From a virus (taxonomy: Duplodnaviria > Caudoviricetes), in the IMG/VR virus record IMGVR_UViG_3300011774_000001, positions 1 to 64,000 of that record: a stretch of DNA of 64,000 nt; one strand, given 5' to 3'. The notes below the pieces were generated by a model that did not search any database, had not been told where the DNA came from, and saw only the letters and a program-made list of their open reading frames with translations. Below are positions 17,840-28,796 of this stretch, piece after piece (the stretch's first letter is position 1; every line of letters starts with the position of its first letter). Both the position numbers and the translations under genes were made by a program.

Positions 17840-20041
17840 ATGTCAATTGATCTCAACACCGTCAGTCTCCCCTTCGACCGTTGGGGCACTGCTGCATCCA
17901 ACAAGCGAGTGGGGGAGCGACAAACTCTAACCAGCGTTGCCTGGACAGAGTTCAACATCCTGATCCCGAAGTATGCCCCGTATTACTCGGAGAGCATTGC
18001 CAACGATGGGATCATCCACATTCCAAGCGGTCGCCGTCTGGTTCGTGGTAAGGACTGGATCGAGGGATGGTACTTCCAATCCGCCTCTGGCGAGATCGGT
18101 CTGGACATCCACTGCTGCATCTACTTCTACGACCCAACCCTCGCAGGCGAATGCGAGATCGAGTCCTATCAAGCTATGGGTGGTGAGTGGCAGATCAATG
18201 GCCAGTTGCTTACTCAGATCTTGGCGCAGAAGCTGCTCAACCCTCTGCGTTACTACTGGGAACAGATCGCCGAATTGCCGGAGATCTTCAACCCACTGGA
18301 CCACGACCAGGACATCGAAGACTTCACCAAGCTGGGCAGCCTGATCGACGTACTGCGCGAAATCGCTGTCGCCATCGGCAAAGACGATCCGGCTATCCTG
18401 GCTCACATTGCCAACAAGAACAACCCGCACGGCACCAACAAGACTCACGTTGGTCTGCCGTTGGTTGAGAACTGGCGCCCTGCGCTGGTGACTGACTTGG
18501 TGGTAGGTTCGTTGACGTATGAAGCGTACATGAACCCGCCGATGACCTATCAGCTGATTCAGCGTACCGCGATTCCTGCGATCAACGCTCACGCTGCGCG
18601 GGTGGATAACCCACACAACACGCGTGCCGACCAAACCGGTGCTTACTTCAAGGCAGAAGTGGATGCCCTGCTGGAATCGTTGGCGCGTGGCCTGATCCAC
18701 AACCTTTACGCTTATCGCCTGGAAGGCAAGAGCGTAGCAGATATCGTGGCCATGGCGCGGGGTGACTCTGCTGGTAGTCTGGATGAACTGCGTGCCGCTA
18801 TCGCTGCTGCCAACGCTTCTGCGAATGCTCACGCCCAGCGCACTGACAACCCGCACAACACTCGGGCTGACAAGACTGGCGCCTACTTCACTACTGAAGT
18901 GGATGCATTGCTTGATGCACTGGCTGCTGGCACCCTGCATAACCTCTACGCGTTCCGTTTGGAAGGTAAGAGCGTTAACGACATTATCACGGCATCCATT
19001 GCCGGGGTAGTGGATCGCATGGATGAGATCAAGCAGGATGTGCTGGACACCCTGACCGCCACGTTGAACAACTACAAGGCTGTCGACACCACCAAGTTTG
19101 CCGGTAAAACGGAAGACCAGTGGGTGGACATCATTGATGGCAAGATCGTTGATGCGGTTAACCATTGGAACATCTGGCCACCGGGTGACGTGATCGGTAG
19201 TGAGACCGAGGCGAGCGTTATCCTCATTGCGGAAATGTCCGACTCTGAAGATTCTGGTGGTACTGACGCATCGCACCGTGGCAGCTTCGGCTTCCGCGTT
19301 CTGATGGGCGGTCCTAACACCACCTCGCCAACCAACTATGCCGACATCTTTGTGTCGCAGAGCACAGGCCAAGCGTGGGGCATCGCCTCTGCCGCATTGC
19401 CGACCGGTGTCTCGTTCTTCTTGGAGAACAAGTTCGGTGACGACGGTTCGCTGTGGGATGGCACCAAGCGTCTCTACATGCGCGCCCCTGCAGGCTTCGG
19501 TGCGGTAGACGTTACTGCATTCTCCATGACCGGTATTACGGTTCCGGGTGAGCAGGACATCTGGAAGCAGTCGACCTGGAACGGTTTAGGTACGCCGCTG
19601 GCCACTGTGAACATCGCATTGGTTACCAATGGCACCAAGGAAATGTCGGACGCCGTTCAAGGCAACGTCAACACCTTGACCACTGCAGTTACCAACCTCG
19701 GTACGCTGGCCCAGAACAATGCTACGAAGATTCTGGCACTGGAGAACAGCAACAAGGTTCGTTACTCGCAGAACCGCAGCATCCCAGCGGGTAACAAAGT
19801 GACCATCGACATGCAGACATTGGTGACCGACCCTGCTGACATCGCCAAGTACGACTATCTGGGTGCCCGTGTCACCGTGTTGCTCCTGGACGCTGTCACT
19901 GGCTCCGATACCAAGGACTCGTACATCGACTCTGCGCAAACTGTGGTCAAGGCTATCCGTGGCAGCCGCTATCTGGATCTGTGGAACTACGATACGGTTG
20001 CGGCTACGGTTGCGGTACGGATCGAGCTGCCATTGCTCTAA
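17840..20041 (+). CDS. Tail fibre protein (phiKZ gp145/146-like N-terminus) with NPH repeats
   Basis: N-terminal PFD..G...SN...GE and PKYAPYY motifs; H..N..NPH.T repeats; 80-aa internal duplication. Confidence 0.8.
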   Translation: MSIDLNTVSLPFDRWGTAASNKRVGERQTLTSVAWTEFNILIPKYAPYYSESIANDGIIHIPSGRRLVRGKDWIEGWYFQSASGEIGLDIHCCIYFYDPTLAGECEIESYQAMGGEWQINGQLLTQILAQKLLNPLRYYWEQIAELPEIFNPLDHDQDIEDFTKLGSLIDVLREIAVAIGKDDPAILAHIANKNNPHGTNKTHVGLPLVENWRPALVTDLVVGSLTYEAYMNPPMTYQLIQRTAIPAINAHAARVDNPHNTRADQTGAYFKAEVDALLESLARGLIHNLYAYRLEGKSVADIVAMARGDSAGSLDELRAAIAAANASANAHAQRTDNPHNTRADKTGAYFTTEVDALLDALAAGTLHNLYAFRLEGKSVNDIITASIAGVVDRMDEIKQDVLDTLTATLNNYKAVDTTKFAGKTEDQWVDIIDGKIVDAVNHWNIWPPGDVIGSETEASVILIAEMSDSEDSGGTDASHRGSFGFRVLMGGPNTTSPTNYADIFVSQSTGQAWGIASAALPTGVSFFLENKFGDDGSLWDGTKRLYMRAPAGFGAVDVTAFSMTGITVPGEQDIWKQSTWNGLGTPLATVNIALVTNGTKEMSDAVQGNVNTLTTAVTNLGTLAQNNATKILALENSNKVRYSQNRSIPAGNKVTIDMQTLVTDPADIAKYDYLGARVTVLLLDAVTGSDTKDSYIDSAQTVVKAIRGSRYLDLWNYDTVAATVAVRIELPLL

Positions 20042-20100: not shown

Positions 20101-21564
20101 ATGTCCCTTCGCCCGTTTAAGTTCGAGGTTGATAACACGGGTGTCAACCCGAACAACCTCGTACCTGCAGAGGCGCACACCCTGCAAGCGACAGGTAAGC
20201 GCTTCATTGTGACCGATCATGGTCCGTTCTATACGGGCTCTCTGATCCTGACCGACTTGGCAACCGGTCAGACATTGGCACCCCGCACCCAGTACACCGC
20301 GATTCAGCTGGAAGAAGATGCAACCGTTGAATCCGGTAAGGAAGTCTGCTCGATCATCATCATTGATGACCCGAAGGTTTCCAACCGTGTGGCTGTAACC
20401 TATCAAGCCTACGGCGGCTGGATGAGTTACTCGGTGACCGCCATCATCGAAATGATCGAAGCTTTGGATCTGGACAACCGTGAGATCCACTGGGCCGACA
20501 TTGTGGGCAAGCCCGATCGTTATCCACCGGCACCTCACCAACACCCGCTGTCCGACATCTACGGTTGGCACAAACTGTTCCCATCGCTCAATGCTATCCG
20601 TGAGGCTATCCTCGCTGGTGACCAGGCGGTGTTCGACCAGATCCGTGCATCGTTTGCGGCAGAGATTGCCAGGCTGGATGCCAAAGATGCTGACTTGCTG
20701 AACAAGCTGAACAAGCACGTCAGTGACTTCGCTAACCCACACCAGGTGACCATCCACCAAATCGACGGCCTGTCTTCCAGCGAGATCTATGCGCTGCTGG
20801 CCTTGAAGTTGGACAAGACTGGTACCGCGGTCAACTCGCTGAAACTGGAAGGGCGTACGTTCCTCCAGACTCGCGATGAGATTGTGAACTCCATTCAGAA
20901 CCCTGAACTGGATAACGGTCTGTTCAACAAGCCAAACCTGGGTGAGAACTGGAACACCAGTGACACCTCGTTGGTGTTGACCCGTGATGGCTGGAAGAAC
21001 TTCAAGGCGCATGAAACGGCCTTTGGTCGCAACATCACTCAGTTGGGCGGCTACACCACTGCCGAGACATTGTCTCTGCTGGCACAGCGTCTGCCGATCG
21101 GTGGTACTGCGGTGAACGCCAATGGCTTGGAAGGTCGCTCCTTTGCAGGGACTCGTGCAGAGATCGTAGGTTCCATCCAGAACCCTGAGTTGACCCGCGG
21201 TTACTTCAACAAGAACAACCTCGGTGAAAACTGGAACCCTGCCAACAACAAACTGGTACTGACCGCAACGGGTTGGCGCGAGTTTGCCACCATGGCAGGC
21301 GAGAACGGTCTGGACGGCGGTTCCCTGATCTGGTCGGGCGGCATGCGTTGGGCTCAGGTTCAAACGGCCTACGCAGACAACACCCGCTACAAGCCAGGCA
21401 CTGCGGTGATCTTCGTGTACACCAACTACAATGTTTGGGGTACGGGTAACGGTACGGCTTCGACCTCCGTAGACACTTACGGCATCATGGTCAAGATTGC
21501 TCCGGGTCAATGGATCTTGGTAGCGACTTCTGGCCCAGCCACTAACCAGGCCAACACTCTGTAA
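20101..21564 (+). CDS. Tail fibre protein 2 (same N-terminal family)
   Basis: D.TG.NPNNLV..E.H, GPFY, W.DI.GKP..YPP.PH.H...DIYG, NPHQVT motifs; 94-aa internal duplication. Confidence 0.8.
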   Translation: MSLRPFKFEVDNTGVNPNNLVPAEAHTLQATGKRFIVTDHGPFYTGSLILTDLATGQTLAPRTQYTAIQLEEDATVESGKEVCSIIIIDDPKVSNRVAVTYQAYGGWMSYSVTAIIEMIEALDLDNREIHWADIVGKPDRYPPAPHQHPLSDIYGWHKLFPSLNAIREAILAGDQAVFDQIRASFAAEIARLDAKDADLLNKLNKHVSDFANPHQVTIHQIDGLSSSEIYALLALKLDKTGTAVNSLKLEGRTFLQTRDEIVNSIQNPELDNGLFNKPNLGENWNTSDTSLVLTRDGWKNFKAHETAFGRNITQLGGYTTAETLSLLAQRLPIGGTAVNANGLEGRSFAGTRAEIVGSIQNPELTRGYFNKNNLGENWNPANNKLVLTATGWREFATMAGENGLDGGSLIWSGGMRWAQVQTAYADNTRYKPGTAVIFVYTNYNVWGTGNGTASTSVDTYGIMVKIAPGQWILVATSGPATNQANTL

Positions 21565-21573
21565 GGAGGCATC

Positions 21574-22146
21574 ATGGACATTGCTACATTGACCGGTGCC
21601 TTTGCACAAGCGCCGAGTATTGTGGGTGGTAAGGTCAAGGTTTGGTTGATCTTCAACCGAGCCAATGGCGTGTACTGGGGTTTCGCCCAATACGACGACG
21701 ACCATGCGTTTGATGAAGACTACTTCGTCTTGGTTGAAGCGGAGATGGATGCCACCTATGAAGGCGTGGTTGGGACTTATCCCGATTACAAGATCATGGC
21801 CAAGGCAGACATGCCTCAGGAAATCGACGAGGCAATGCTCAATGCAATGACCTCTGCGAATATCGAAGCCCGCTACCCCGTGACCAAGCAGATCAACAAT
21901 CTGTCGGCCGTGGTTCTGCTGCTTGCCCAAACGGCGGGCCTGCAAGACAACGAGCTGGTCATGGCGCTGCAGGAACAGGTGGATGAAATCGCCGACATCT
22001 TGCGCAACAACTCTCTGCGTAAGCAGGGCTACGCGGGTAACGATGCGTTCAAGTACGTCACTACCGACGAACGTGCACGCGCCGAGAACTCCAAGTACGA
22101 AGGTGGTCTGCATGAACTCATGGGCCCAAGAACGGTTGTATCCTGA
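21574..22146 (+). CDS. Putative tail-fibre assembly/accessory protein
   Basis: Strong TAAGGAGG RBS; directly follows the fibre gene; helical C-terminus (IEARYPVTKQINNL). Confidence 0.55.
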   Translation: MDIATLTGAFAQAPSIVGGKVKVWLIFNRANGVYWGFAQYDDDHAFDEDYFVLVEAEMDATYEGVVGTYPDYKIMAKADMPQEIDEAMLNAMTSANIEARYPVTKQINNLSAVVLLLAQTAGLQDNELVMALQEQVDEIADILRNNSLRKQGYAGNDAFKYVTTDERARAENSKYEGGLHELMGPRTVVS

Positions 22147-22618
22147 CCTTCTAAGTCCAGCCACCTGTCAGGAGATGCTGGAGCGGTGTAAAGCCCTCCA
22201 GCCTTTCCATTGGGTAAAGGTAGATCGAGCTGTGGGTAAGCAGGGGTATGCCGGGGCTTGGTCCCGGTATGCCTATGCCACGCAAGATTCAATGCCTCCT
22301 GAAATGGCAGAATGGATCTGGGCACAAGCACCCAGTAATCCTGGCTGGGAGTTGGGACGTTTTACCGTAAACCGGTATCGCGTCGGGGAATACATTGGTC
22401 TGCATAAAGACCGTGGCACCCACGATCTGAATTTGATTATCCCATTGCAAAGCGGGGCTGACGGCGTCTGTATTGAAGACGTTGTGTATCCTGACATAGC
22501 TGGCAGTGGACGACTCCATATCTACAACGGCAAACCTCATTGCGTCCCACCTGTCAGTCAGGAGCGGTACGTGGTGATTTACCTGTACAAAGAGGTAGGT
22601 ATCCATGATCAAGGATAA
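22112..22618 (+). CDS. 2OG-Fe(II) dioxygenase (AlkB/prolyl-hydroxylase-like fold)
   Basis: VNRY..GEYIGLHKD (HxD), distal H in PHCVPPV, 2OG-binding R in ERYVVIY; start placed at ATG 22112 by alignment with the paralogue at 23275. Confidence 0.85.
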   Translation: MNSWAQERLYPDLLSPATCQEMLERCKALQPFHWVKVDRAVGKQGYAGAWSRYAYATQDSMPPEMAEWIWAQAPSNPGWELGRFTVNRYRVGEYIGLHKDRGTHDLNLIIPLQSGADGVCIEDVVYPDIAGSGRLHIYNGKPHCVPPVSQERYVVIYLYKEVGIHDQG

Positions 22619-23270
22619 TTTGGGCCCAGACATTCAACGTTTGGCCCCGCTCACCGACGAGCAGCTCAAAGGCCTGATTGCCTACGCTGACTCGCACACG
22701 ATGTTCCCAGGCAATTTCCCGCACATGGGTATCCATGGTCGTGACAATGTCTCGGTCTATCTGCAACACTCGATGTACAAGCAGCCGGTGCGTGATCGCA
22801 AAGCCCTGCGTGAGTTCATGCCGAGCCTGCATGAGCAAGCCATCCTGGAATACTTCTTGGAGTACCCGGCCAAGCGTGGTTTCCTGGACCTGCAGACGTA
22901 TTGGATCGGTAAGCGTCCTTCCATGCGGATCGCTGCGTGGTGTCTGTCCGAGACGGCTACCTTCCAGAGCTGCCGCAACATCACCAACCCATCGTTCTCT
23001 CTGAAAGATACCATCCCAGTTGGTGATCTGGTGTCTGACGGTGAGCGCACTGAATTGGTGACGCTGGAGAATGCCGAGTATTGGGCCAACCGTGACGACA
23101 TCATTCGTCAGAACGCACCTGTTGAACACAACTTCAAACAGGGCGAAGGTTTCCTGCTCAGCCTGAACAACGCACACGCTGTGCAAATCCAGCCAACCAC
23201 CCAGCGTTGGTTCTGCCTGGGGCTCATGATGAGTCCCGAAGACATCCACGCTCCCAAGACTTGGATCTAA
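22605..23270 (+). CDS. Divergent double-stranded beta-helix (cupin/2OG-oxygenase-like) protein
   Basis: FKQGEGFLL...HAV...QRW pattern matches the C-terminal half of the fold; no HxD; GAGG RBS. Confidence 0.55.
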   Translation: MIKDNLGPDIQRLAPLTDEQLKGLIAYADSHTMFPGNFPHMGIHGRDNVSVYLQHSMYKQPVRDRKALREFMPSLHEQAILEYFLEYPAKRGFLDLQTYWIGKRPSMRIAAWCLSETATFQSCRNITNPSFSLKDTIPVGDLVSDGERTELVTLENAEYWANRDDIIRQNAPVEHNFKQGEGFLLSLNNAHAVQIQPTTQRWFCLGLMMSPEDIHAPKTWI

Positions 23271-23274
23271 GCTC

Positions 23275-23784
23275 ATGGACTTTGACAAGACATTGGGGTT
23301 TCAGTCGATCCCAGGATTGATTGATCCAGTCACCTGCGAAGTGCTCAAAGAAGCCCTCGAACGCCTGCCTGCCCAATACTGGGCATTGCGTGATGTACTG
23401 GCTCCCGGTCGTGGTTACTCAGGCGAGTCCTGTCGATACCACTGGGCAGGCCCTGGGACGCTCCCTAAAGAGCTTTATCAGTCTTTGGTGGACATTGCCC
23501 CTAAGCACCCTGATCTCGACCTGTACGAGGCTTGTGTGAACCGCTATGAGCCAGGTGATTACATCGGTCGTCATCGAGATCGTGATGGCAGCATTCTGAA
23601 CATCACGATTCCTTTGCAGGCTGAAGGCGATGGGTTGGCACTCGATGAGGCCTTCTGCCCTGATGTCGTTGGTCAAGGTAACCTGCTTTACAAGTCTGGC
23701 CCTGCACACTCTGTACCGCCTGCCAAACACAGGCGCTTTGTTCTGATCTTTCTTTACACGGAGAAGCCTCATGCTCACCGTTAA
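23275..23784 (+). CDS. 2OG-Fe(II) dioxygenase, paralogue of 22112..22618
   Basis: VNRYEPGDYIGRHRD, AHSVPP, RRFVLIF. Confidence 0.85.
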   Translation: MDFDKTLGFQSIPGLIDPVTCEVLKEALERLPAQYWALRDVLAPGRGYSGESCRYHWAGPGTLPKELYQSLVDIAPKHPDLDLYEACVNRYEPGDYIGRHRDRDGSILNITIPLQAEGDGLALDEAFCPDVVGQGNLLYKSGPAHSVPPAKHRRFVLIFLYTEKPHAHR

Positions 23785-24466
23785 CCGCCTTGGCAACAGC
23801 TGGGCTGCCGCTACTGATCCGAAGTCCGGTGAGTTGGTTCTGATTCATCTGGACAGTCTGCGTCAGGAAACGACCGACCCACTTGACCCGTCCGCTGTGA
23901 TCTCCACCTTCAGCTATCTTCGTCGTGCTCAGCCGATGGATGGCGAGGTGGTCAAGCCTACCGCCGACGACCTCAAGAAAGCAAAACACTTCCCTAACGA
24001 GGTGGTTCTGCTGATGGGTCTCGCCGATGGTGAAAACCCTGCACGCTTGTTCGATCAAGTGGTGTACGTGTTGTTCGCCGTGCTCTTCGAAACACATCCT
24101 CCGATGACCTACGAAGAGTATCAACTGTACCTCAAGCAAACCCCTCGTTACGGTCGCACCTACATGGCGCAGCCAAACACCGCCAGTCCTACCGGTCGCT
24201 TTGCTGCGTGGAACATTTTGTTCACTCGCACTTACGGCCTGAACGACAAGGGCATCTTCACCAAACTGTCGGCCAAGGCTAAGTACCGCTTTGGCTACAT
24301 GGGTGGTAATGAGGTGTTCCCTGGCTCGATCTACAACTTCCCACAAGGCTTCATTCTGGAGCGTGATGTGGAAGGTCATGACTTTATCGAGATCATGTCC
24401 AACCTCCTTACCGCTGCCAGTCAGAGCGAAGACGTGGCCAAGGTTGAGCCGTACTGGGTCCAGTAA
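23771..24466 (+). CDS. Hypothetical protein, last gene of the fibre/oxygenase operon
   Basis: GGAG RBS; overlaps upstream stop; followed by a terminator hairpin. Confidence 0.75.
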   Translation: MLTVNRLGNSWAAATDPKSGELVLIHLDSLRQETTDPLDPSAVISTFSYLRRAQPMDGEVVKPTADDLKKAKHFPNEVVLLMGLADGENPARLFDQVVYVLFAVLFETHPPMTYEEYQLYLKQTPRYGRTYMAQPNTASPTGRFAAWNILFTRTYGLNDKGIFTKLSAKAKYRFGYMGGNEVFPGSIYNFPQGFILERDVEGHDFIEIMSNLLTAASQSEDVAKVEPYWVQ

Positions 24467-24473
24467 ACGCTGC

Positions 24474-24506
24474 CCCGCCTTCCCTACGGGGAGGGCGGGC
24501 GTATGC
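24474..24506 (+). terminator. Hairpin followed by TATGC
   Basis: CCCGCCTTCCC-TAC-GGGGAGGGCGGG then CGTATGC. Confidence 0.75.
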
Positions 24507-24535: not shown

Positions 24536-27500
24536 ATGGCCGCTTACAACGTCTGGTTCGATAAAGAACCTGGCCGCTACACCAGTCCCCAGACCATTGG
24601 CTGGACTGTGTCTGATCAGGTTGACTTCTTCGCCATCTCCCAGGGCGATACCCCTGCCGCGATCTCGGAATACATTGCCTATGACACCCTAACGCCACCT
24701 AACCCGTTTATTGCAGTGACACAGGACGGTACAGGTAATGTTGTTTATGACGGGGGCTTCCCCAAGTTCATGAACGCCTCCTCTCCACCTTCCGGGATCA
24801 ACGCATCGATCACCATGGAGTTCAAGGCAACCAACGATGGTTCGTCCACCACGGGAAATGCCTACTACTACAACGCCTTCAGCGACCTGGCCGTCACCAT
24901 TGCTGCAGGCGACCGGCTGGTGTATGACATGTTGCAAGACAGTGCCAACGCCCGCGTGGGTATTGACGCCGTTACGACCAACAGTGCTCAGACCGACCCC
25001 AATCACTATTCGATGCGAGACTGGGGGCAGCCGATCAGTGTGCTACATGACCAGAATGGATTGAGTGTTCACCCGGCCAGTGATCTGGGTAACCGCGCCG
25101 TTAACCAGTGGTACCACCGCGAGTTCGACCTGTCCGCCTGTGCAGGCTATACGTTCGTTAAATGGTCCATGGCCTACGAGGGTGAAATCCCAGGTACGTT
25201 TGCCACTCGTTTCCGCGATGTCTACATCTTGGACAGCACTGGCAAGATCAAGGCGATTCTGTTTAAGGACACCATGCGTCTGCCCGGTAACTCCTCCACT
25301 GAGGTTGGTGCCTCGGGTTACACCAACCTGTCCAAGACGCTGTACGATCCGCGCTCGCAGTTGGCAGGTTCTTACAAGTACCTGTTCAACGCAATTCACT
25401 TCTGCTCCAATGCAAAAAAGAACGCTGCAGGTAATAAGAAGATTCTGATCCTGGGTGACCACACCAATGCGTCTTCGACCTATGCGGTGAAGAGCACCGC
25501 CGCCAGTGGTTTCATGACCAGCATGACCAACCTGTGCGCAGCCCTGGGCTACACACCCACGTTCAAGGACTTGAGCGATTATGGTGGTGCCCAGCTGAAC
25601 CCGACGCTGGCAGAGCTGGAACAATACAGTCTGGTGTTGATGTTCTCCACCCAATATAACCAGCAGAACGCTCCACTCATTACATCCGCAGCGGTGGATG
25701 CGTTTGTGGCTTACCGGTCAGCTGGTAGTGGCATCATTCTGATCACCGACCACGGTAGTTCCGTAATCACGGACATCGGTCAGGTTAACTTGGAGGTGGC
25801 TACTTCTGCCGGCTTCTATGGCACCTGTAACCGGATCGCCACTCGCTTTGGTGCTTGGTTCACAGGCAACTTTGACCGCACGCCGGTGAACGTAGGGTTT
25901 CTGCGCAGCACCTACGGGGAGCATCCGTTGTGGGCTGGGATGACCAATGATGAGAGCATCATTGCCGGGGGTTCTGAGTCCAAGGTGATGATCACCCCGT
26001 TCACCAAGTACACCAAGCTGAGTCTACCCCCCGCTATCAGTCTGCAAACCCCGCAGCGCAAAGTGGTGCAGGTAACGGCTAAGCTCAAAAACGGTGAGGC
26101 TGAAACCTTCCGTGTGGTGTTCATCTATGGTGACGGTTCTCTGATCAAGTGGGTTGACAGCAATCGCAATGAAGTAACGGCGGTTGACACCAAGTACGCT
26201 TGGAGCTTCTTGGTTGATCTGGCCCTCGATACCGTTGGGTTGGGTACATTGACGGGTTCCATCTACCACAACACTGTCAAGATCGGTGAGATTGTTTCAA
26301 CAGATGCTGGTGGTCCAGTGGTGACGTTCTACGCAGGGTCCTTGGCAGGTCACCGTTTCTTGAATGGAGATGTGTTGAAGGCTGCATTGGAAAACCCGAT
26401 CAGTGCCTCTGCTTCGATCACCGTTAGCCGAATCAACCTTGAACAACTCAAGGGACGTTCGCTGCCTGAGATCGCGCAGATGATCTCCCACAAGTACGGT
26501 GCAGGTACGGTCGCTGGCGATGCTGCCAAATTCCCGCAGCGGGCAATCATTGCCGCCGGTCGAGGGATCAAGTCGATCCTGCCCAAAGGTGCTTCGATTG
26601 ATGGGTATGGGTTGGTATTGGACTGGAATGATGCGGCGAGAAACATCCGCCTGATCAAAGAGTTCGCTAAGGGGAACTTCCCACTGGCACCTCTGAACGT
26701 TCTGCTGTATGAAGACCAGACCAAGGCCAACGTGGCCATGGCCAACTTCACCCCACCAACGCCCAAGCAGATCTTCGACACCTGGGGACGGTTCTCGAAT
26801 CAGGAATGGTACGAGCCAGGAGTTGTGCCTCCAGCGTCTTCTGAGGCGTCTGGCTGGACATGGGATGCCGCTTCCAATAGTGCCAAGTCTACGGTCAACT
26901 CTGCAAGCACAATTGGCTTTGTGTCCAAGGAGAAGGTAGAGGAGTACACCCACGACGTAACCCTCTCGTCTTCCAATGCGGATGATGATTGTGTCTGTGT
27001 GGTGATCGCTGCCACCAAGACAGGGAACCTGGTAGAGCATCTGTGTGTGGTGTTCTCGCCGGGTGGGTTTGGTTCTGCTCCAGTGACCCTGCAGTACAAC
27101 TTGGCGACTACAGGTGCTAAGGTACTGGTGTCTCGCAGTGTAATTGCGTTCGGTACACCTAACAGTGGACTGACGCCGTGGAGCGGTCGCAGTATTCGGG
27201 CTAACATCAGTCGTCGGGGATCGAGCATCAGTGTTTCCTACACGAACTGGAACGATCCGTTGGGTCCTTTGGTGGATACCTTCACGTTTGACATGGCCTC
27301 TGATCCGGTCTTGACAAACCTGTTAGGCCCACAGTCGTACGGCTACGCAGCGATGTCTCAGCCTGACGTGACCTTCCAAGGCATTACGTTCTTGGGTGGT
27401 GTACTGCTCAACACCCTGTCTGTGGCGTCTACAGGCGCAGTGTATCGTTGGAATGGATCGGCTTGGGCCCCACTGCCTAACACTAAGCTGAAAGACATCT

Positions 27501-28027
27501 ACGGCACCCAACGTAAGTTGGTGTCCTACTTGACCACGCAAGAGTTTTACGTGGATAAGAATGGTGTCGTAACCAAGCTGACAGACCCTGCTCCAATGTT
27601 GTTGTCCCCTCTGGTGAACTCAGCCTTCAAGAACCCAGTGACCAACGCGGTGATGTCGCCACAGTACAAGGTCTACTCGGCCAATTACGGCTGGCAATCG
27701 CTCCCTGCCAACTTGACGATGTATTACTACGCAGACCTCTACTTCCCAGCGGGCGACTACTGGTTTGTGGGTGCTGCGGATGATCAGCTGAACGTTGAGA
27801 TTGACGGGGTGTTCTACAAGAACCTCGGTGGTGGTTACGCTGAAGGGTCTGCGCCTAGTGCATTTAAGGTGACGCTGACAGCGGGCGTACACAAGTTGAA
27901 ACTGACTAACGTGAACGTCCCAGCCAATACTCCTGGGTATTGGTACATGTTGATCCTCAATGCTGCAGGCGCTATCTTCCACGAACCTACTCCAGGCACT
28001 TGGAAAACACTCGACTCGATCGGGTAA
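24536..28027 (+). CDS. Large multidomain tail fibre/adhesin (GATase-like, lectin-like and C-terminal PA14-like domains)
   Basis: 1163 aa; AGGAG RBS; LEQYSLVLM...GSGIILITDHG; NADDDCVCVV; YFPAGDYWFVGAADD...IDG...GVHKLKL. Confidence 0.7.
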   Translation: MAAYNVWFDKEPGRYTSPQTIGWTVSDQVDFFAISQGDTPAAISEYIAYDTLTPPNPFIAVTQDGTGNVVYDGGFPKFMNASSPPSGINASITMEFKATNDGSSTTGNAYYYNAFSDLAVTIAAGDRLVYDMLQDSANARVGIDAVTTNSAQTDPNHYSMRDWGQPISVLHDQNGLSVHPASDLGNRAVNQWYHREFDLSACAGYTFVKWSMAYEGEIPGTFATRFRDVYILDSTGKIKAILFKDTMRLPGNSSTEVGASGYTNLSKTLYDPRSQLAGSYKYLFNAIHFCSNAKKNAAGNKKILILGDHTNASSTYAVKSTAASGFMTSMTNLCAALGYTPTFKDLSDYGGAQLNPTLAELEQYSLVLMFSTQYNQQNAPLITSAAVDAFVAYRSAGSGIILITDHGSSVITDIGQVNLEVATSAGFYGTCNRIATRFGAWFTGNFDRTPVNVGFLRSTYGEHPLWAGMTNDESIIAGGSESKVMITPFTKYTKLSLPPAISLQTPQRKVVQVTAKLKNGEAETFRVVFIYGDGSLIKWVDSNRNEVTAVDTKYAWSFLVDLALDTVGLGTLTGSIYHNTVKIGEIVSTDAGGPVVTFYAGSLAGHRFLNGDVLKAALENPISASASITVSRINLEQLKGRSLPEIAQMISHKYGAGTVAGDAAKFPQRAIIAAGRGIKSILPKGASIDGYGLVLDWNDAARNIRLIKEFAKGNFPLAPLNVLLYEDQTKANVAMANFTPPTPKQIFDTWGRFSNQEWYEPGVVPPASSEASGWTWDAASNSAKSTVNSASTIGFVSKEKVEEYTHDVTLSSSNADDDCVCVVIAATKTGNLVEHLCVVFSPGGFGSAPVTLQYNLATTGAKVLVSRSVIAFGTPNSGLTPWSGRSIRANISRRGSSISVSYTNWNDPLGPLVDTFTFDMASDPVLTNLLGPQSYGYAAMSQPDVTFQGITFLGGVLLNTLSVASTGAVYRWNGSAWAPLPNTKLKDIYGTQRKLVSYLTTQEFYVDKNGVVTKLTDPAPMLLSPLVNSAFKNPVTNAVMSPQYKVYSANYGWQSLPANLTMYYYADLYFPAGDYWFVGAADDQLNVEIDGVFYKNLGGGYAEGSAPSAFKVTLTAGVHKLKLTNVNVPANTPGYWYMLILNAAGAIFHEPTPGTWKTLDSIG

Positions 28028-28029
28028 CA

Positions 28030-28077
28030 GCATAGACCCCCTGCCCGCAATGGGCAGGGGGCTTGTGCCTTTATGCC
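28030..28077. terminator. Bidirectional hairpin with GCATA / TATGCC flanks
   Basis: CCCCCTGCCC-GCAAT-GGGCAGGGGG between convergent genes. Confidence 0.85.
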
Positions 28078-28796
28078 GCGACTTCCAACACGTTACCAGT
28101 CTTCAAACCTTCAGCCTGCATGGCATTGAGTTTGACCAGACATTCAGCACGGGTGATGACTTTGTCTTTGTTGACATCCAACCCCGAGTTCTGACGGTAG
28201 GTGGTAGGTCGAGTTGCCTCGTCCCACAGCACGTAGCTGTCAGGCTGCCCCACACCCTTGGGCCAGAGGATCGCCATGTACAGGTCACCCAGGTTCTTCA
28301 GGCGCCCTGTGTAGGGCATGAAGTATTTGAGGACGTAGTCGAGCTGCTCTTCAGCCGTCATCTTCGCCAGACGGGCGCAGGCTTCGATACCGGCTGCTTT
28401 CTTCTGGGCATCCGACATCTTGGCAATCTGTGCAGGGGTGTTGAAGTACATGATCGCTGTGGCGGGCATGAACTGAATCAGGCCAGTGGCACCGGAACCT
28501 GCTTTGTTGACAACCGAGGGGGAGAAGGTGCGGCCCGACTCCCAGGCGATGCAGGTCAACAGGTCAGACAGACCCGTAGCAGCCGGCATGTTCAATGCGG
28601 CAACAATGTTACGGCACTTGGCGAGGAAAGGGGCAGATACTTTAGCGCCCCATGCGATTTGCATTGTTGACTCCTTTGCGCTTAACGCAGCTTCAAGGGC
28701 AGTACGGGAACCATTCCCCCACTTACCGTCTACATCGAGTTTATAAAAGCCCTCGTCCTTGAGCACTTGTTGCAGTTTGCGAATAACGGTGGTCAT
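28071..28796 (-). CDS. Endolysin: N-terminal peptidoglycan-binding domain plus SLT-like lytic transglycosylase
   Basis: LQQVL...GFY...VDGKWGNGS (PG-binding 1); catalytic WES...GATGLIQFMP; GGAG RBS. Confidence 0.88.
   Translation of the reverse strand: MTTVIRKLQQVLKDEGFYKLDVDGKWGNGSRTALEAALSAKESTMQIAWGAKVSAPFLAKCRNIVAALNMPAATGLSDLLTCIAWESGRTFSPSVVNKAGSGATGLIQFMPATAIMYFNTPAQIAKMSDAQKKAAGIEACARLAKMTAEEQLDYVLKYFMPYTGRLKNLGDLYMAILWPKGVGQPDSYVLWDEATRPTTYRQNSGLDVNKDKVITRAECLVKLNAMQAEGLKTGNVLEVAA

Follow-up and report, generated by a model that had tools for sequence, protein, structure and literature searches.

A fibre-linked cassette of 2-oxoglutarate oxygenase-fold genes in phiKZ-like and other tailed phages, with a candidate asparagine target at the fibre tip

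The window analysed here is the first 64 kb (64,000 nucleotides) of a 231-kb virus record (IMGVR_UViG_3300011774_000001, 54% GC) and carries phiKZ-type tail genes. Immediately behind a tail-fibre gene lies a cassette of five genes, g1 to g5, two of which (g2 and g4) encode Fe(II)/2-oxoglutarate (2OG) oxygenases with intact catalytic residues and a third (g3) a paralogue devoid of the iron triad. g1, g2 and g4, and g3 belong to the families of phiKZ gp136, gp137, and gp138 (PHROG 13209, 2297, and 14616, respectively). We favour, with moderate confidence, the interpretation that the cassette is an accessory fibre-tip modifier module located beside a fibre-assembly helper, which probably hydroxylates an invariant asparagine of the fibre tip. 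The fibre gene and the cassette are organised as follows (positions in the window).

20101..21564 (+): gp133/gp134-type fibre, 487 amino acids, proposed substrate (phrog_2163, E 2e-76; single genome-wide match of the tip model)
21301..21564 (+): C-terminal tip domain, about 85 amino acids, with the beta-hairpin motif G-T-G-N-G-T (alignments of 26 and 36 tips)
21448..21450 (+): codon of Asn450, the candidate site of modification, invariant among the tips (N in 36/36 tips)
21574..22146 (+): g1, gp136-type, beta N-domain and long helices, probable fibre-assembly chaperone (phrog_13209, E 3e-34)
22112..22618 (+): g2, intact 2OG-Fe(II) oxygenase occupying the ancestral slot, phiKZ gp137 family (H98/D100/H143/R152; phrog_2297, E 2e-15)
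22605..23270 (+): g3, triad-less paralogue of the phiKZ gp138 family, carrying an insertion of about 48 amino acids specific to this clade
23275..23784 (+): g4, second intact oxygenase of the gp137 family, present in the clade of this phage only (H100/D102/H145/R154; nearest folds PPHD, PHD, and vCPH)
23771..24466 (+): g5, 231-amino-acid protein of this clade, of uncertain membership in the cassette (homologues after the last gp137-type gene at 4 loci)

Linkage of the cassette to one type of fibre tip

A profile search yielded 48 representatives and motif scans about 60 loci, designated below by numbers preceded by L. The order fibre-gp136-gp137-gp138 was found in nearly all close members, which include phiKZ-like, T4-like, plasmid-type, P2-like, and marine phages. 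In T4-like Otagoviruses, the trio is located between the fibre occupying the gp12 slot and a neck gene. A plasmid-type prophage and marine phages also carry it. In a P2-like prophage inserted in a bacterial chromosome (L079:3393-6010), the full trio lies between the gpH fibre, which ends in an Asn-hairpin tip, and the sheath gene, in the slot of the fibre chaperone. Genes of the gp136 and gp137 types were each detected in 72 phage records with an identical host breakdown. The presence of the cassette behind fibres in no fewer than four types of unrelated phages, together with the co-occurrence of a specific tip, supports the original prediction that these genes are connected to fibres rather than to DNA metabolism. 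A restriction of the cassette to this phage, or its rarity among phiKZ-like phages, is not supported, since the core is shared by phiKZ (gp136 to gp138) and some 70 relatives.

The fibre shafts of the carriers are unrelated, and the same small tip domain is found at each C-terminus. Apart from the sister phage, other tips display only 16-29% identity with the tip of this phage. Among 36 aligned tips, only two residues never vary, one Asn and the final Trp. This Asn, Asn450 in the window, is located at the apex of a predicted hairpin, with G, S, or A before it and G, A, or S after it, and is retained even where its neighbours become Ser, Ala, Asn, or Tyr. A conserved Pro of the hairpin was considered as a shared target and rejected because Pro occurs near the Asn in only 6 of the 36 tips; a Pro located elsewhere is possible.

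The association was evaluated at the 42 cassette loci where the end of the fibre is visible, independently of the tip model, by searching a C-terminal window for a fixed Asn pattern. The pattern matched at 40 of the 42 loci, compared to 17% of other open reading frames. One of the two loci off the pattern has G-N-Y and the hairpin is deleted in the other (L046). An Asn hairpin is thereby present at the fibre C-terminus in 41/42 loci. Many of these loci are near-duplicates, and the number of independent cases is closer to ten lineages than to forty. As many as three fibre paralogues upstream of the trio were accepted at phiKZ-type loci because gp135 is devoid of the hairpin, which is present in gp133 and gp134. 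The hairpin was also found at L076, L079, L093, and L094, four loci retrieved via the enzyme after the tip model had been built. In the reverse direction, the cassette was found at 11 of the 12 loci retrieved with the tip, all close kin of known loci, and the sequence of the twelfth ends at the tip. No tip match was obtained in ten cassette-less phiKZ relatives with the same fibre base, versus matches in all four cassette-bearing control records. Searching with a degenerate DNA pattern of the tip yielded low-complexity noise only.

Several loci depart from this organisation. The tip at L046:1856-2191 lacks the entire hairpin beside an intact cassette, owing to a real deletion or to an assembly error. 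In phiKZ gp135 (L001:12057-13448) and its equivalents, the last of the three fibre paralogues keeps the tip scaffold and is devoid of the Asn hairpin; heterotrimers would therefore carry two hairpins. At L081:494-2917 and L092:3068-6190, a phiKZ-type fibre is followed by a Gly-rich adhesin resembling T-even gp38 and then by a triad-less relic of gp137, itself followed at L092 by a g5 homologue. No tip, gp136, or gp138 is present with these two relics. Two other phiKZ relatives, Ralstonia phage RSL2 (L085:10255-14639) and phiEaH2 (L090:8329-13547), harbour radical-SAM gene sets in place of the oxygenase cassette behind a gp133-type fibre, and their position suggests that these sets and the oxygenase cassette may be interchangeable fibre-tailoring cassettes.

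The oxygenases and the other cassette genes

g2 and g4 are 37% identical over 151 amino acids (E 9e-37) and both contain the complete HxD...H triad and the 2OG-binding Arg, as originally predicted for these paralogues. In the gp137 family, the triad is intact in 41 of the 43 members and the basic 2OG-binding residue in all 43. The AlphaFold2 model of g4 (predicted local distance difference test score of 95) displays the double-stranded beta-helix fold, with a Foldseek match at an E of 4e-8. Its VIA structural matches include PPHD (Z 15.9), PHD and vCPH (15.3), and ALKBH6 (14.9). The top four are of the PHD/P4H type, and the best of them exceeds ALKBH6 by no more than 1 Z. Judged from the modelled fold and the residues, g2 and g4 are members of the Fe(II)/2OG oxygenase superfamily. 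The fold settles the superfamily and does not fix the substrate because ALKBH6 scores so closely. Pfam matches of g2 and g4 were below threshold, both for 2OG-FeII_Oxy_2 (PF13532; 22.2 and 17.8 bits for a gathering score of 31.2, E 2e-4 for g2) and for PF13640 (13.8 and 15.2 bits for 27 needed). The Pfam scan detected no match of the cassette proteins to PF05118 (AspH) or JmjC profiles at E values up to 1.

An AlkB- or TET-like action on nucleic acids, as implied by the PHROG category and by the label 'DNA endonuclease' that gp137 inherited via PHROG 2297, is very improbable. The label, the weak 2OG-FeII_Oxy_2 matches, and the ALKBH6 score are in its favour, as is a solo, distant gp137-like gene located amid DNA ligase and NAD-salvage genes (L021:7724-8200) and unlinked to fibres. 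However, the gp137 family lacks the second Arg of the R-x5-R motif of AlkB (position +6 is a Leu in 39 of the 43 members), is acidic (median isoelectric point of 5.8), and is almost always found in a fibre context. The endonuclease identity of gp137 was rejected since no nuclease motif or fold was found, and the modelled fold contradicts the label.

The second gp137 copy is confined to the clade of this phage (L007, L011, and L037). The gp137 tree is mostly unresolved, including the origin of the duplication and the placement of the triad-less relics. In phage D6 (L003:9788-10420), gp137 is annotated as a 100-amino-acid protein; the open frame exceeds this length, its match begins close to the N-terminus, and the annotation is probably a wrong start call. 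In the contig of P0043, a distant gene of the gp137 family precedes one that faintly matches asparagine synthase and one for a solute-binding protein.

g3 is homologous over its full length to the gp137 family (HHalign probability of 90%, E 1.6e-6), in agreement with the original description of the middle gene as the same fold in degenerate form. Throughout the gp138 family (31 members), HxD is lost, the distal His is kept, and Trp replaces the 2OG-binding Arg in g3 as in most members. Y52 and H191 are the only invariant residues. The Atlas model of g3 has a template-modelling (TM) score of about 0.6 to 2OG oxygenases, and the model of its PhiPA3 counterpart, gp157, one of 0.64 to g4. Since HxD and Arg were lost in the gp138 family, which keeps only the distal His, sequence comparison identifies g3 as a pseudo-enzyme of the 2OG oxygenase fold, and the cassette encodes two predicted enzymes rather than the three first proposed. 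The insertion of about 48 amino acids in g3, at about 22960-23130 (+) of the window, was found only within this clade (L007 and L011).

The g1 family is located immediately 3' of the fibre at all loci and occupies the P2 gpG/Tfa slot in the P2-like prophage. The g1 model is weak (predicted TM score of 0.43), its best match (Z 6.3) is to unrelated helices, and Tfa rows appeared only at E values of 0.3-0.6; the fold search with this weak model gave no significant match. Neither the g1 profile nor the tip profile returned anything credible in searches of PDB sequences, and Pfam and PHROG scans of the tips and g1 gave no match. g1 is probably a fibre-assembly chaperone. Searches of Pfam, PHROG, and phage records with g5 gave no match. 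Its homologues sit after the last gp137-type gene at L007, L011, L037, and L092 (E 6e-9). In the Atlas, g5 matched unnamed clusters only; an HSDR_N_2 lead, present on 41% of members, was not adopted.

The ratio of nonsynonymous to synonymous substitution rates relative to the sister phage (84-92% protein identity) is 0.10-0.15 for all five genes, indicating that g1 to g5 are real genes under purifying selection. The junctions from the fibre to g5 are +9, -35, -14, +4, and -14 nucleotides. The original prediction was thus accurate for the five open reading frames, their coordinates, and the other junctions, the first gap being 9 rather than 10 nucleotides. It also placed no terminator before 24474. 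Five terminator-like matches were found in the region for 8.7 expected, and the single one within the cassette is at chance level, which agrees with this claim; the hairpin at the end of the cassette lacks a T-run and is not called by the terminator scan. The large fibre gene that it described downstream corresponds to a virion/fibre-like gene. The surrounding features are as follows.

17840..20041 (+): phiKZ gp131-type tail-fibre protein, 733 amino acids, context (phrog_13857 tail protein, E 2.8e-45; phrog_2163, E 1.8e-55; slot matching phiKZ gp131)
24469..24506 (+): GC-rich hairpin, then TATG (RNAfold, -30.7 kcal/mol)
24536..28027 (+): virion/fibre-like protein, 1163 amino acids, context (phrog_11065, E 4e-130; phrog_33406 tail fibre, E 1e-20)

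The TATG following the hairpin is possibly a phiKZ-type late start motif. The fibre at 20101..21564 is the sole gp133/gp134-type fibre of the assembly. The 1163-amino-acid protein was rejected as a second carrier of the cassette-type tip domain because the tip model did not match it. A gene for a 241-amino-acid lytic enzyme (28071-28796, minus strand), with peptidoglycan-binding and SLT-type regions, is convergent with the fibre operon.

Tip modification and alternative explanations

Published data on phiKZ and 201phi2-1 provide information on the role of the trio. In the cryo-electron microscopy atlas of phiKZ, the fibre base comprises three copies of gp131 together with gp133, gp134, and gp135, the distal part is unresolved, and gp136 and gp137 are unmentioned (PMC13250141). 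In the 201phi2-1 record, the fibres flanking gp221 to gp223 are noted as detected by virion mass spectrometry and gp221 to gp223 themselves bear no such note, which fits assembly factors. Transposon sequencing of phiKZ in PAO1 revealed zero insertions in gp133 to gp136 and in gp138 to gp140, the counts (Table S2) covering the central 80% of each gene, and 577 reads at two central sites of gp137, which tolerates insertions (bioRxiv 10.1101/2025.11.23.690004). gp137 looks dispensable on PAO1, with thin coverage. gp136 is probably truly needed by phiKZ since gp137, located just behind it, tolerates insertion. Either gp138 is needed or insertions in it are polar on gp139 and gp140; the authors of the study caution about polarity (bioRxiv 10.1101/2025.11.23.690004).

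The fold, the catalytic residues, the selection, the linkage, and the invariant Asn are established, and binding, substrate, and product are what we infer in the following scheme. A fibre with an Asn-hairpin tip, a gp136-type helper, a gp137-type Fe/2OG oxygenase, and a gp138-type inactive paralogue would form a mobile tip-maturation module. While particles assemble in the infected cell, the gp136-type protein would help the fibre to fold or trimerise, as suggested by the position of its gene and by the absence of insertions from it. Its gp138-type neighbour, a pseudo-enzyme, may bind the tip or act as partner of the enzyme. In the tip hairpin, one residue would be oxidised by the gp137-type enzyme, most probably through beta-hydroxylation of the invariant Asn, to which co-conservation points. 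Under laboratory conditions the modification would be accessory; it might serve to adjust receptor binding or stability. In this phage, the second enzyme copy is old and maintained. The two enzymes could act at different sites or in different steps, or one of them could have a further target connected with g5. A prediction for the complex of g4, Fe, and the tip scored 0.19 for a mark of 0.32 and was not used as evidence either way.

The same insertion pattern, in which gp136 and gp138 are spared and gp137 is hit, would also be expected from a module acting mainly as a folding and assembly machine for the tip, with gp136 and gp138 as chaperones, the Asn-Gly forming a turn of purely structural importance, and gp137 working as a co-chaperone or oxidising another residue or partner protein. 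The persistence of the triad-less relics as whole open reading frames behind gp38-type adhesins points in this direction. So do L054:8-2827 and L061:1-2707, where a fibre, a distant intact oxygenase, and a gp136-type gene, without gp138, are combined with a tip displaying a long Ser/Thr/Gly loop devoid of Asn-Gly. We nonetheless consider this explanation rather unlikely. A pure chaperone needs no iron triad, yet the triad is kept in 41 of the 43 members and both copies are under purifying selection in this phage. The Asn is kept despite the changes of its neighbours, and the result for gp138 may reflect polarity.

Alternatively, the enzymes could modify the host surface (lipid A or lipopolysaccharide, pilin, flagellin) inside the infected cell, thereby blocking superinfection or preventing the re-adsorption of progeny, with a link to fibres imposed by receptor match. 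A receptor-matched exclusion gene would be transferred together with its fibre and would be dispensable in single infections, and LpxO is an example of a 2OG enzyme that hydroxylates lipid A. This explanation is improbable: no match to the LpxO/AspH family was obtained, the sequences contain no evident signal peptide or membrane anchor, and triad loss tracks replacement of the fibre tip. Moreover, the module is found in phages of very different hosts, with highly variable tips in which one Asn is constant. We found nothing in support of the host surface receptor as a target, which the original prediction had entertained.

Several observations weigh against the hydroxylation of the tip Asn by the gp137-type enzyme, a predicted chemistry. 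The most serious objection is that Asn-Gly is a classic beta-turn, the commonest of type I', so that the invariant Asn may be kept for structural reasons; our searches found no tip without the cassette for comparison. By sequence, the gp137 family belongs neither to the FIH/JmjC nor to the AspH families, the known Asn hydroxylases. The proximity of ALKBH6 to the best fold match, the insertions tolerated by gp137, the tips of L054 and L061, the deleted hairpin of L046, and the solo gene of L021 also count against this interpretation, as does L060, where gp138 and gp137 lie between other fibre genes with no adjoining Asn hairpin. Finally, the locus counts overstate independence. We propose only tentatively the more specific claim that the enzyme/pseudo-enzyme pair of many unrelated tailed phages, including phiKZ, whose enzyme is of a PHD-like family not known to act on Asn, oxidises one invariant Asn at the apex of the fibre tip and that host range or stability is switched. 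If this were true, these phages would expose a modified receptor-binding loop containing hydroxy-Asn, possibly binding metal or offering a handle for further chemistry.

Significance and comparison with known systems

The module names one enzyme, one partner, and one candidate residue, and is present in phiKZ, for which virion proteomics, a cryo-electron microscopy atlas, and pooled transposon data already exist. For dozens of Pseudomonas phages relevant to therapy, our analysis corrects the label borne by gp137. It also cautions that a fibre transferred or produced in the absence of its downstream genes may not be authentic. Literature searches, which did not cover most subscription journals, revealed no study on gp136 to gp138 or on fibre hydroxylation, and, to our knowledge and within the scope of these searches, it is not established that enzymes tailor the receptor-binding fibres of phages. 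The 2OG oxygenase of this widespread module is virus-encoded and probably protein-directed.

The closest system, phiKZ gp136-gp137-gp138, comprises the same three families in the same order directly behind gp133-135-type fibres. It differs by three fibre paralogues instead of one, whereas this phage has a second gp137 copy, a 48-amino-acid insertion in g3, and the additional gene g5. The g1 family resembles the Tfa chaperones (P2 gpG, lambda and Mu Tfa) by its location in the Tfa slot of the P2-like prophage and by a beta N-domain followed by a helical C-domain, in spite of the lack of a significant sequence or fold match.

FIH (JmjC) and AspH (PF05118) catalyse the chemistry proposed here. 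The Atlas model of g3 is nearest to a viral PF05118 cluster (TM 0.61/0.67), but the cassette proteins have no Pfam match to either family and other 2OG families score about equally. In bacterial operons, Iyer et al. (2010; PMC2938197) predicted tail-collar proteins to be substrates of co-encoded 2OG hydroxylases. As in our proposal, a co-encoded 2OG oxygenase would hydroxylate a tail-fibre-like protein. These operons, known from prediction only, differ in that they are bacterial, contain enzymes of the AspH-like and PhyH families, and combine sulfotransferases with tail-collar or collagen proteins. PPHD of Pseudomonas (4iw3), vCPH of PBCV-1 (5c5t), and PHD of Dictyostelium (6t8m) share with g2 and g4 a minimal double-stranded beta-helix, the HxD...H motif, and a single 2OG-binding Arg, and vCPH is likewise encoded by a virus. 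Identity to these enzymes is 10-17%, and the proposed target of the phage enzymes contains no conserved Pro. In contrast to these three enzymes, those of the phage module are almost always accompanied by a triad-less partner and a chaperone-like gene.

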